Source of the DNA: Candidatus Dormiibacterota bacterium
GTDB taxonomy: Bacteria; Chloroflexota; Dormibacteria; Aeolococcales; Aeolococcaceae
Direction: 5' to 3'
Assembly (NCBI GenBank): GCA_963718525.1
Contig: OY970355.1
Location: 1,440,001 to 1,504,000 of the forward strand
Length of the DNA stretch: 64,000 bases
The notes beneath the pieces are model-generated. The model searched no databases and had not been told where the DNA came from. It saw only the letters and a program-made list of their open reading frames with translations. Below, one piece after another: positions 11,086 through 12,799 of the stretch. Each line of letters begins with the position of its first letter. The stretch's first letter is position 1. A program made the position numbers and the translations under genes.

Positions 11086-11712
11086 CTAACGCAGCCGGTA
11101 GGTGGCCGGCCGCTCGTCCGTGACGGAGACCTTCGGCGCGTTACGCTCGAGGATGCGCCGTACTTGCTGAGGCGTGAACGTTGCGCCAAGGCGTTTCCGG
11201 ATCGCCGCAACTGCCAGGGGCCGGGTCGATTCCTTGAGGATCGCCAGCACCTTGTCGTCAGGTGTGCTCCGCGTGGCCGTGTGCTTGCCGTTGGACGCCA
11301 CCGCAGGCGCGCGTTTCGGCTCGGGAGCGCTCTCCGGGACATGCATCGGCTGCTCGACGGCAACTGGCACCGGTGTCGCCGCCGGATGCGGGGCTTCGCT
11401 CCGTCCCGGGAGATCGATCCGAGCAGGCCGCGAGGAGCCCTCGCCGTGCAGGCGAGCCCACATCGCGGGAAGGTCGTCGAGGACCTGGCGGACGAACGCT
11501 GCCGAACCGCTCACCTCGATCTCACGGTCGCCATCGCGCAGCCGCAGCGAGTGCGACATCGGCGCGGCCGGCACCTCCACTCGGGGCGCCGGGCGAAAGG
11601 GCGGCCGGGAATCGTTGTTGAAATTGGGTCGCGGGCCCGAGAACTGTCGGGGGCCGGAGAACGAGGGACGGTCCGAAGAGGGGCGTCCCTGATAGGGGCG
11701 GTCGTCAGGCAT
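11086..11712 (-). CDS. Hypothetical protein with C-terminal winged-HTH-like domain
   Basis: ATG 11712 with GGAG RBS; C-terminus DKVLAILKESTRPLAVAAIRKRLG...QQVRRILE...TYRL. Confidence 0.7.
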   Translation of the reverse strand: MPDDRPYQGRPSSDRPSFSGPRQFSGPRPNFNNDSRPPFRPAPRVEVPAAPMSHSLRLRDGDREIEVSGSAAFVRQVLDDLPAMWARLHGEGSSRPARIDLPGRSEAPHPAATPVPVAVEQPMHVPESAPEPKRAPAVASNGKHTATRSTPDDKVLAILKESTRPLAVAAIRKRLGATFTPQQVRRILERNAPKVSVTDERPATYRLR

Positions 11713-12358
11713 TGGTCTCCTGGTTGGCTGTGGGTTCGTCGTGGTTGTGTCCCTGGCTCCGAGCGGCCCTCGGCGCCGACTCCGCGACCACCGGGCTGCC
11801 GACAACATCGGCGTCCGGGTCGGCCTCAGCCTTCGATTCCTTGGTCAGGTCGGTGATCTGGACATGGCGATCATCGTCGGGCAGGGTGATCTGGGGGAGA
11901 TCGTCATCATCCGACGGCGCCGGTCCGAAGAGACGCTCCTGGATCTTGGCGCGCAGCGGCGACTGGATCAGCGCGAACACCCCACCGACGACCGCGGCGC
12001 CGATCAGCAGGTTGCGCACGCGGTGCGTCTTCTTCTTGGGCCGGATTGCGCTGCTCAGCTTCCCCGACGCGTCGGCAATGCGCTCCCGTGCGGCATTGCT
12101 CGCGGCCGTGACCCGGCCGTCTGCCGCAATCTGCTCGGCGGTCTCCGCCAATGTCCCGGCGGCGCTCTGCAGCACCTGGCTCAGACTTTCCGCGCCGCGC
12201 TGCACGGTGGGGAGTGCAGCGCTACCCGCACCGCGCGCGAGCGTCACCGCATGATCCGCTAGATCACCGATCGCATCGGCCGCGCGAGCGCGGTCAAGCA
12301 CGGCAGCTCTGGAACGTCGACTCCGCATGATGCAATGACCTCCGTTCTCACCTGCCAT
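11705..12358 (-). CDS. Hypothetical protein with helical N-terminus, one hydrophobic segment and acidic tail
   Basis: Overlaps the downstream gene start; LLIGAAVVGGVFALI hydrophobic stretch; start uncertain (12358 or 12328). Confidence 0.65.
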   Translation of the reverse strand: MAGENGGHCIMRSRRSRAAVLDRARAADAIGDLADHAVTLARGAGSAALPTVQRGAESLSQVLQSAAGTLAETAEQIAADGRVTAASNAARERIADASGKLSSAIRPKKKTHRVRNLLIGAAVVGGVFALIQSPLRAKIQERLFGPAPSDDDDLPQITLPDDDRHVQITDLTKESKAEADPDADVVGSPVVAESAPRAARSQGHNHDEPTANQETNA

Positions 12359-12448
12359 CTATGGCGCCAACTAATTGAAGTGGCGCGAACAGACTGATTC
12401 TACGTTGGTTGCACGGTTCAACGCTCCGTACGCGGCGGGCTGTGACGC

Positions 12449-12763
12449 TCAGGCGGCGGAGGAAAGCGCCGGGGCAATGTCGCGGAGACTGATCGGCGAG
12501 GCTTCGCGAGCAAGCGCTGTGTCCAGCGGCGCGTCGAGAAACCACCTGATGCGCGCCGCAGCGACCGGTCCGACGAGCTTGGCAAGCTCTGGCTCCGAAG
12601 CGCTGTAGATCGATCGCAGTGACGGGTAGGATCGGATCAGCTTCACGAAGGCGGCAGGCTCGAGACCGTCGACCCCGGCGAGGTGGCTCACCCGGCGCCG
12701 GGCGAGGGAACCGGCCTCATCGGCATCGAGAGGGAGCTGAAGCTCGATCGTGCGGATGGGCAT
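12449..12763 (-). CDS. Stand-alone tandem helix-hairpin-helix (UvrC/ERCC4 C-terminal-like) protein, 104 aa
   Basis: HLAGVDGLE...KLIRSYPSLRSIYSASEPELAKLVGPVAAARIRWFL matches the (HhH)2 pattern; ATG 6 nt after TACACT. Confidence 0.75.
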   Translation of the reverse strand: MPIRTIELQLPLDADEAGSLARRRVSHLAGVDGLEPAAFVKLIRSYPSLRSIYSASEPELAKLVGPVAAARIRWFLDAPLDTALAREASPISLRDIAPALSSAA

Positions 12764-12769
12764 GCGTCG

Positions 12770-12799
12770 AGTGTAACGAACGGATGTTCGACTTGTCAA
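12770..12799 (-). promoter_or_regulatory. Sigma70-type promoter TTGACA-N18-TACACT with a LexA (Cheo/SOS) box CGAACGGATGTTCG in the spacer
   Basis: TTGACA 12799-12794, TACACT 12775-12770, CGAAC-N4-GTTCG palindrome at 12777-12790. Confidence 0.85.

Follow-up and report, generated by a model that had tools for sequence, protein, structure and literature searches.

The stretch of DNA analysed here, referred to below as the window, comprises 64,000 nucleotides (nt) of a Candidatus Dormiibacterota bacterium (contig OY970355.1, positions 1,440,001 to 1,504,000 of the forward strand). The host genome is a single contig of 3.34 Mb with a G+C content of 66% and is 88.9% complete. On the minus strand of the window, the promoter, the operator and the open reading frame (ORF) of a small gene follow each other within positions 12449 to 12799. 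The product consists of a tandem helix-hairpin-helix domain, abbreviated (HhH)2 or HhH2, to which a short N-terminal arm and a C-terminal tail are attached; we name gene and protein after this domain. The promoter harbours a LexA-type box, which has been retained together with both termini of the protein in homologous loci. The gene is very probably under SOS control, and its product is perhaps a transient factor docking on DNA and on the beta sliding clamp. All features discussed in the following are compiled in Table 1.

Table 1. Position, strand and basis of assignment of the features of the HhH gene and of its neighbours; positions are those of the window.
Feature	Position	Strand	Basis
-35 hexamer TTGACA	12794..12799	-	sequence reading and promoter scan
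LexA-type operator CGAACATCCGTTCG, Cheo-box type GAAC-N4-GTTC, within the promoter spacer	12777..12790	.	pattern search
-10 hexamer TACACT	12770..12775	-	sequence reading and promoter scan
Coding sequence of the HhH gene, read as leaderless; 104 residues plus TGA stop (12449-12451)	12449..12763	-	ORF reading
ELQLPL, codons 7-12, pattern E-[LM]-x-L-P-[LF]; candidate beta-clamp-binding hexapeptide	12728..12745	-	alignment, AF2
(HhH)2 domain, residues 14-80, five helices	12524..12724	-	AF2, Foldseek, PDB profile search
RIRWFLDAPL, residues 71-80; 8 of 10 residues unchanged throughout the family	12524..12553	-	alignment
Tail, residues 81-104 (24 residues), variable, low confidence, Ala-Ala end; candidate ssrA-like ClpXP degron	12452..12523	-	alignment, AF2
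Divergent Zn_ribbon_8 (FmdB-type) protein, 75 residues	12830..13057	+	Pfam PF09723, E 1.1e-13
-10 hexamer TAGAAT of the 207-residue protein gene, plus GGAGG Shine-Dalgarno sequence	12402-12397	-	sequence reading
Downstream hypothetical protein, 207 residues, hydrophobic stretch (membrane segment by eye)	11705..12328	-	synteny in 71/80 loci
Downstream protein, 208 residues: disordered Pro/Arg-rich N-terminus, beta-hairpin plus helix module, C-terminal winged helix	11086..11712	-	synteny in 77/80 loci

Operator, promoter and regulon

The initial annotation of this locus had described a near-consensus, leaderless promoter of the form TTGACA-N18-TACACT-N6-ATG with a perfect CGAAC-N4-GTTCG palindrome between the two hexamers. 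All of these elements could be placed on the minus strand between positions 12799 and 12761. The 18-nt spacer is composed of AGT, the palindrome CGAACATCCGTTCG and a single T, and the six nucleotides CGACGC separate the -10 hexamer from the ATG at 12763-12761. In a promoter scan, 10 of 12 promoter positions were matched; this was the sole site between positions 12000 and 13300, where shuffled sequences gave 0.1 on average. No Shine-Dalgarno sequence is found ahead of the ATG. For this reason, and because the start codon lies only 6 nt past the -10 hexamer, the mRNA should be leaderless. A form of 116 residues, which appears in the ORF list with a TTG start, was rejected, as this TTG is part of the -35 hexamer itself. 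The palindrome CGAAC-N4-GTTCG occurs once in the window compared to 0.12 expected copies, and at least one copy was present in 12 of 100 shuffles; the host genome contains it at five places and the reversed control pattern at none.

For the HhH protein, 97 homologous protein clusters were identified, whose properly called forms have a length of about 90-125 residues. Conservation at the DNA level was assessed by means of 80 genome loci containing the gene. For the box, 77 of them are scorable; one locus (L043) is cut by the end of its contig, and two (L038, L075) have lost the N-terminus, probably due to frameshifts. The core GAAC-N4-GTTC is perfect in 73 of the 77 loci and deviates by one mismatch (GCAC-N4-GTTC) in the other four. 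A -10 hexamer was callable in 76 loci, and in every one of these the core ends exactly 2 nt ahead of a TAnnnT element and is preceded by a TTG at a distance of at most 12 nt. The complete 14-mer reads CGAAC-N4-GTTCG in 73 and CGCAC-N4-GTTCG in three of these 76 loci, and the variants of the -10 hexamer include TACCAT, TAGACT, TACACT and TATACT. The first ATG or GTG follows the -10 hexamer after 6 or 7 nt in 67 loci; in the other nine, either the first codon chosen by the script was a different ATG or GTG, or the spacing deviates. Inspecting the homologues for a loss of the box or of the N-terminal motif described below showed that both are retained. According to the record titles, 66 of the 80 loci bear Dormibacteria-type names, among which Changshengia and Aeolococcus were confirmed in the taxonomy. 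The other 14 were labelled differently by their depositors: eight as Chloroflexi, Chloroflexia or Chloroflexota, two as Actinomycetes, and one each as Saccharimonadales, Acidiferrales, Binatia and Angelobacter.

The distribution of the gene is narrow. It was detected in 16 of 401 sampled genomes of the phylum, and all 16 belong to one family of the Dormibacteria. Within this family, the host genome aside, 15 of 17 genomes possess the gene (13 of 15 without two unpublished genomes). It was found in none of the four genomes of the sister family (0/4) and nowhere in the rest of the 401-genome sample.

In Gram-positive bacteria and in Chloroflexi, LexA recognises GAAC-N4-GTTC as its operator, and the regulon pattern of the host genome agrees with this role. 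There, GAACATCCGTTT lies upstream of lexA and GTACAAATGTTC upstream of recA. A survey of 20 family genomes, which left out two loci of unpublished genomes, one locus at a contig start and one partial locus, revealed a box ahead of lexA in 19 cases: 18 boxes are of the form GAAC-N4-GTTT at a distance of 77-90 nt, one is perfect and located at -100, and one genome has none. In the host genome, promoter-embedded boxes also precede radA and imuA' (RecA-like according to Pfam), the latter being followed by imuB and dnaE2. A gene for a protein with a transmembrane segment and a LysM domain, which resembles YneA and ChiZ, carries two tandem, likewise promoter-embedded LexA-type boxes (C1:2397112-2397160) about 1.5 kb from lexA. 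Its LysM domain (L151 134-481) was assigned by Pfam and its transmembrane segment by eye; the gene is a candidate for the SOS division inhibitor of the lineage. In two leaderless DUF222-HNH genes (C1:540622, minus strand, and 1859563, plus strand; the Pfam check covers the copy at 1.86 Mb), a TATACT -10 hexamer follows immediately on a LexA-type box. LexA control of this kind also applies to the 13E12-type genes of mycobacteria. A Metallophos gene resembling SbcD is preceded by a box as well, with no promoter-like context scored.

Because the box has been kept at 77 loci and related boxes precede lexA, recA and further SOS genes, we assign the HhH gene with high confidence to the LexA regulon; judged from this sequence evidence, LexA should bind the box, and the gene should be induced by DNA damage. 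The SOS control proposed by the initial annotation has thus gained strong support, both from the co-conservation of the box and from the same motif ahead of lexA and the classic SOS genes. Contigs assembled from RNA (four Logan runs) were uninformative on expression: none lies over the HhH gene, and metatranscriptome contigs of relatives cover the genes of the 207-residue protein and of the zinc-ribbon protein.

As a side observation, a look-alike of the box, GGAACCATCGTTCC, is flanked by a TTGACA and a TATAGT at C1:3193142 (plus strand). It precedes an ORF of 502 residues, which we read as a putative MFS-type transporter. The look-alike may belong to another regulator.

Fold, N-terminal motif and C-terminal tail of the protein

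According to structure prediction, the protein almost certainly adopts a (HhH)2 fold of the XPF/ERCC1/UvrC type. The model computed by AlphaFold2 (AF2) from an alignment of 30 sequences has a mean predicted local distance difference test (pLDDT) value of 75; the core reaches 85-94, and values are low for residues 1-12 and for the C-terminal tail. Helices were predicted for residues 14-29, 36-45, 49-54, 57-64 and 66-77. The best Foldseek matches are the HhH2 domains of ERCC1, UvrC, FAAP24, XPF and Hef (probability 1.00, best E-value 0.012). A profile search of the PDB sequences gave Hef (8.7e-4), FAAP24 (8.8e-4) and UvrC (3.2e-3), as well as LigA, ERCC1 and DisA; topoisomerase V scores in this search via its many HhH repeats. 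The Pfam scores for HHH_5 (E 0.0011, 19.8 bits) and HHH_2 (E 0.017, 15.7 bits) are both under the 27-bit cut-off; some family members carry precomputed assignments to PF14520 or PF12826. Pfam reported HhH matches only and no nuclease domain in the 104 residues. In these respects the description given in the initial annotation was accurate; it had overlooked the 24-residue tail at the C-terminus. Neither PHROGs nor PADLOC gave a match for the HhH protein or for the products of the two downstream genes.

A HMMER scan of the whole library without length limit yielded 19 representatives at E<=1e-10, all having a length of 45-174 residues; the forms of 174 residues are upstream mis-calls, which translate the promoter. 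Longer proteins enter the scan only from an E-value of 1.8e-8 and via generic HhH parts. Since the matches are short and the others concern generic HhH regions only, we conclude that the HhH protein stands alone. Within the family, 21 columns are invariant, and even at a sequence identity of 43% homologues retain the length, the start, the stop and both terminal motifs. The end of the domain, RIRWFLDAPL, aligns with IRWIIDSPY, which closes a metagenomic HhH2 protein (hhalign probability 97.7%). We read the latter as a fragment of XPF/Hef type; its Pfam matches are HHH families only.

Homologues bear the automatic JGI name 'ERCC4-type nuclease'; the only other database name is 'hypothetical protein'. 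Judged by sequence, the JGI name is wrong as to the nuclease. We also tested whether the ORF is a decayed fragment of uvrC, which is not the case: an intact uvrC is located elsewhere in the host genome, BLASTP detected no similarity to the C-terminal region of the host UvrC ending within its HhH2 domain, and hhalign related the protein to the full UvrC C-terminus with a probability of 64% and 30% identity over 40 columns, which signals a remote relationship only. The ERCC4 domain (PF02732) was not found in the host genome at its given completeness. The idea of the initial annotation that the protein competes with UvrC is supported by nothing in this analysis.

The N-terminal arm contains the hexapeptide E7-L8-x-L10-P11-L12. 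The initial annotation had pointed to a clamp-like QLPL at this site; the Q of this QLPL has turned out to be a variable position, which is occupied by Q, E, L, D or S. Alignment A1 shows no variation at E7, L10 and P11. Among the 80 loci, 77 possess the motif; position 1 is E in 76 cases and D in one, position 2 is M in seven cases and otherwise L, and position 6 is L in 70 cases and F in seven. The codons of the motif vary synonymously between loci; therefore, selection acts on the peptide. The arm is predicted to be disordered: the mean pLDDT is 47 for residues 1-10 and 66 for residues 11-20, and residues 1-12 are modelled without secondary structure.

Clamp-binding motifs have been defined as Q-phi-x-L-F or Q-phi-x-L-x-L in a recent preprint (bioRxiv 10.64898/2026.05.27.728225). 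The hexapeptide fits the second form at positions 2 (L/M), 4 (L) and 6 (L/F). The N-terminal QLSLPL of Hda and QFKLPL of HdaA are listed as clamp-binding motifs in PMC3836487. A co-fold of the HhH protein with the host DnaN (alignments A2 and A1) scored 0.53, compared to 0.00 for the best of three controls, which the tool rates as 'weak support'. Of 157 solved complexes, 116 reach the mark in question, as do 2 of 215 mismatched pairs; scores <=0.60 were obtained for only 18 of the 157 and for both mismatches that passed. Between the DnaN runs, at least 82% of the contacts agreed, and the pLDDT of the partner was at least 63; no interface was released. Note that the pass may reflect mere likeness to solved complexes of clamp and peptide. 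Taken by itself, docking of the arm to the clamp has in our estimate a little less than an even chance. The coupling to the clamp suggested by the initial annotation has gained weak support: it agrees with positions 2, 4 and 6 and with the disordered arm, and it is at odds with the E at position 1.

A related observation concerns ImuB of the SOS cassette (C1:212347-213555), in which a QTDLL occupies the place close to the C-terminus that holds the clamp motif in other ImuB proteins. This pentapeptide is a candidate for another non-canonical clamp motif of the lineage.

In the aligned family, the tail has a length of 10-22 residues. It ends with two alanines in 79 of the 80 loci, and the exception (L034) looks frameshifted; as a background, 201 of 9680 long frames of the host genome (2.1%) end in AA. 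ClpX reads a C-terminal AA-COOH, and several SOS proteins are substrates of ClpXP. The tag encoded by the host tmRNA is ANNAPLALAA, and clpX is present in the host genome with a score above its cut-off. For the candidate degron, degradation by ClpXP and the contrary view appear equally probable to us.

Neighbouring genes

The zinc-ribbon gene, which is transcribed in the opposite direction, starts 30 nt beyond the -35 hexamer of the HhH gene. It is present in 65 of the 80 loci, and in 57 of 80 it is both adjacent and divergent. Among the 23 of 80 loci where it is not adjacent, the scorable ones keep the box at the HhH gene. The zinc-ribbon gene does not belong to the HhH unit. A possible leaderless promoter of the zinc-ribbon gene reads TTGTCA-N18-TACCCT-N7-ATG; its -35 hexamer would overlap that of the HhH gene on the opposite strand and abut the box. 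A partial co-repression of the zinc-ribbon gene via the LexA box is conceivable.

Downstream of the HhH gene lie the genes of the 207- and 208-residue proteins. The pair was treated as a separate unit because it has its own conserved -10 hexamer and Shine-Dalgarno sequence: TAGAAT or TATGAT and GGAGG are conserved ahead of it in 15 of 18 loci inspected. Read-through transcription from the HhH gene might occur. When the RNA of the gap that separates the HhH gene from the pair was folded, no terminator-like structure stood out (z-score -1.22), and a terminator scan found none on the minus strand. Positions 12363 and 12379, at which RNA contigs from two studies terminate, lie just inside the predicted 5' untranslated region of the 207-residue protein gene; these ends are at most a weak hint at an own transcription start. 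Atlas searches with the two downstream proteins gave a DUF5324 lead for the 207-residue protein (score 0.93) and hypothetical proteins of Dormibacteria. The winged helix of the 208-residue protein is backed by AF2 with high confidence and by Foldseek. With the query used, this protein was not found in five sister-family genomes, an empty answer that shows little. Upstream, rnhB accompanies the HhH gene in 69 of 80 loci.

Proposed mode of action and alternatives

Combining these observations, we consider it possible, at a probability close to one half but below it, that the HhH protein is a transient, damage-induced factor which docks on DNA and on the clamp and is cleared by ClpXP. Upon DNA damage, activated RecA would cause LexA to cleave itself, and the operator buried between the -35 and -10 hexamers would become free. 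The leaderless mRNA would then be produced and translated at once. The HhH2 domain could dock the protein on DNA at backbone or junction sites, and the disordered E-L-x-L-P-L arm could dock in the peptide cleft of the DNA-loaded beta clamp, as QLSLPL of Hda does. At the clamp, the protein would either occupy it, acting as a brake or enabling a hand-over to the co-induced ImuA'-ImuB-DnaE2, or recruit a partner via the RIRWFLDAPL face. Finally, LexA would repress the gene again and the flexible -AA tail would deliver the protein to ClpXP, making the effect transient. A more specific version is a self-limiting clamp plug: an HhH2 dimer would fill both clefts of the DNA-loaded beta dimer at a stalled fork with its two Hda-like arms, the HhH2 pair would hold the DNA, and the replicative polymerase would be evicted, which would result in a replication pause or a hand-over to ImuA'-ImuB-DnaE2, until ClpXP, owing to the -AA tail, erased the block within minutes of LexA re-repression. 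In this elaborate form the proposal is unlikely.

Several known systems resemble parts of this proposal. Like ELQLPL, the motifs QLSLPL and QFKLPL of Hda and HdaA have a hydrophobic residue at position 2 and L at positions 4 and 6 on either side of a P at position 5, and they are located in the first 12 residues ahead of a folded domain (PMC3836487). In contrast to Hda and HdaA, the HhH protein has an E at position 1, an HhH2 instead of an AAA+ domain, an SOS-regulated gene and no known link to DnaA. With the C-terminal domains of XPF, Hef, ERCC1, FAAP24 and UvrC it shares the five-helix tandem HhH fold. It differs in having no attached nuclease or helicase domain and in the degeneracy of both hairpins; the host UvrC is related only remotely. 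UmuD/UmuD' of E. coli is SOS-induced; a short motif in its N-terminal arm binds the clamp, and ClpXP or Lon removes the protein. SOS induction, an N-terminal clamp motif and proteolytic removal are what we propose for the HhH protein, whereas UmuD/UmuD' has a LexA-like S24 peptidase fold and a different motif and works with UmuC. SocB of Caulobacter is controlled by ClpXP. This small protein is reported to bind the beta clamp and to block elongation after DNA damage (PMC6393856). A replication block by clamp binding is the kind of mechanism proposed here; however, SocB belongs to a toxin-antitoxin-like pair controlled by stability, whereas the HhH gene is promoter-controlled by a LexA-type box, and the two proteins are related neither in sequence nor in fold. 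YneA and ChiZ are likewise products of small, lineage-specific genes under a GAAC-N4-GTTC box. In contrast to the HhH protein, they are membrane-bound LysM division inhibitors, and a gene of this type with two boxes is already present in the host. A role of the HhH protein as a division inhibitor was considered and rejected: inspection by eye revealed no hydrophobic, membrane-like segment, and the boxed YneA-like gene is already a candidate for this function.

A number of findings weigh against the docking proposal. Both hairpins are degenerate, the first reading G-[LVIM]-[ED] and the second V-G-P; the isoelectric point is 6.6 (family median 6.7), and the Pfam HHH_5 match is under the gathering score, so that DNA binding is not assured. 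The defining Gln of the clamp motif is replaced, as position 1 is never Q (E in 76 and D in one of 77 loci), and the preprint assigns the largest influence to positions 1, 4 and 5 of the pentapeptide and reports that hexapeptides bind the B. subtilis clamp at least 10-fold more weakly than the E. coli clamp (bioRxiv 10.64898/2026.05.27.728225). The host clamp is served by Q-type motifs, because the host DinB carries a canonical QLDLF, and the co-fold with DnaN received no rating higher than the one quoted above. With respect to the tail, a Leu precedes the terminal AA in one of 80 loci only (L077, LAA), which differs from the ALAA of the host tag; the other loci end with SAA, RAA, KAA, HAA, EAA, QAA, NAA, TAA or DAA. 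Lastly, recA (C1:2411451-2412411) matches two overlapping frames in a frameshift-like manner; should this split be genuine rather than a long-read artefact, the strain would be impaired in SOS induction. Similar splits were observed elsewhere: the C-terminus of dnaA (L090 42-1220) looks frameshifted, and two related few-contig assemblies (G008, G011) have a split DnaN. For recA, dnaA and DnaN, the probable cause is indel errors of long-read sequencing and not decay into pseudogenes.

The main rival accepts the SOS induction and dispenses with the clamp: the HhH2 domain would act on DNA alone or pair with a protein, much as HhH2 domains of the XPF family form dimers, and the arm would bind ImuA'/ImuB, RecA, or the 207- or 208-residue downstream proteins. 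We rate this as a serious alternative of moderately low probability. It is favoured by the E in place of Q and the QLDLF of DinB, by the rating of the DnaN co-fold, and by RIRWFLDAPL, whose invariance suggests a protein interface. The nearest folds, ERCC1-XPF, Hef and FANCM-FAAP24, are dimerisation modules by their entry titles, which points in the same direction, as does the synteny with the downstream genes in 71 and 77 of 80 loci. Moreover, the 208-residue protein was not found in the five genomes of the sister family, in which the HhH gene was not detected either. However, the downstream pair has its own conserved -10 hexamer and Shine-Dalgarno sequence, so co-expression is not obligatory; the fit of the hexapeptide covers positions 2, 4 and 6, and its location in a disordered N-terminus resembles that in Hda; and all three co-fold controls scored 0.00.

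Two further alternatives question the gene rather than the partner of its product. The palindrome might not be a LexA site of the HhH gene, being recognised by another regulator or controlling the divergent zinc-ribbon gene alone. Its LexA assignment is a prediction from sequence, the zinc-ribbon gene starts close to the -35 hexamer, its possible TTGTCA-N18-TACCCT promoter, a reading only, abuts the box, and a GGAAC-N4-GTTCC look-alike exists ahead of the putative transporter ORF. We nevertheless regard this as quite improbable, since the position of the box is exactly maintained at each of the 77 scorable loci, among them loci without an adjacent zinc-ribbon gene, and since the motif found before lexA in 19 of 20 genomes recurs before recA, imuA'BC, radA, the LysM gene and the DUF222-HNH genes. 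Still less credible is that decay of uvrC or of an ERCC4 nuclease left the ORF behind as a remnant without a function of its own. The automatic name given by JGI and weak NCBIfam matches to UvrC (E 0.059) and Hef (E 0.11) might suggest such an origin; against it stand the intact uvrC, the ERCC4 domain not found in the 88.9%-complete genome, the null result of BLASTP with the UvrC region ending within its HhH2 domain and the remote hhalign match, as well as the conserved length, the 21 invariant columns and the start, stop and terminal motifs retained across the family.

The HhH gene thus probably encodes a lineage-specific small SOS effector, whose combination of modules is undescribed in the literature covered. 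The initial annotation had not recognised it as a described SOS gene; this agrees with our literature search, which found no equivalent; most subscription journals are outside its coverage. SOS regulons beyond the model phyla are mostly inferred from core genes, and it is among lineage-specific effectors, for example SulA, YneA, SidA and ChiZ, that new checkpoint biology has emerged. For the family itself, the analysis corrects the misleading name 'ERCC4-type nuclease'. If docking on the clamp is true, the protein would be a promoter-controlled factor occupying the clamp by means of a motif with E at position 1; the plug, if true, would represent a new class of SOS checkpoint effector derived from an XPF module of archaeal or eukaryotic style. 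If the assignment to the clamp is wrong, the conserved RIRWFLDAPL face points to a partner in damage tolerance. In either case, an uncultured soil lineage provides a cleanly delimited SOS gene, whose operator, peptide, tail and HhH2 core are each testable as recombinant parts.

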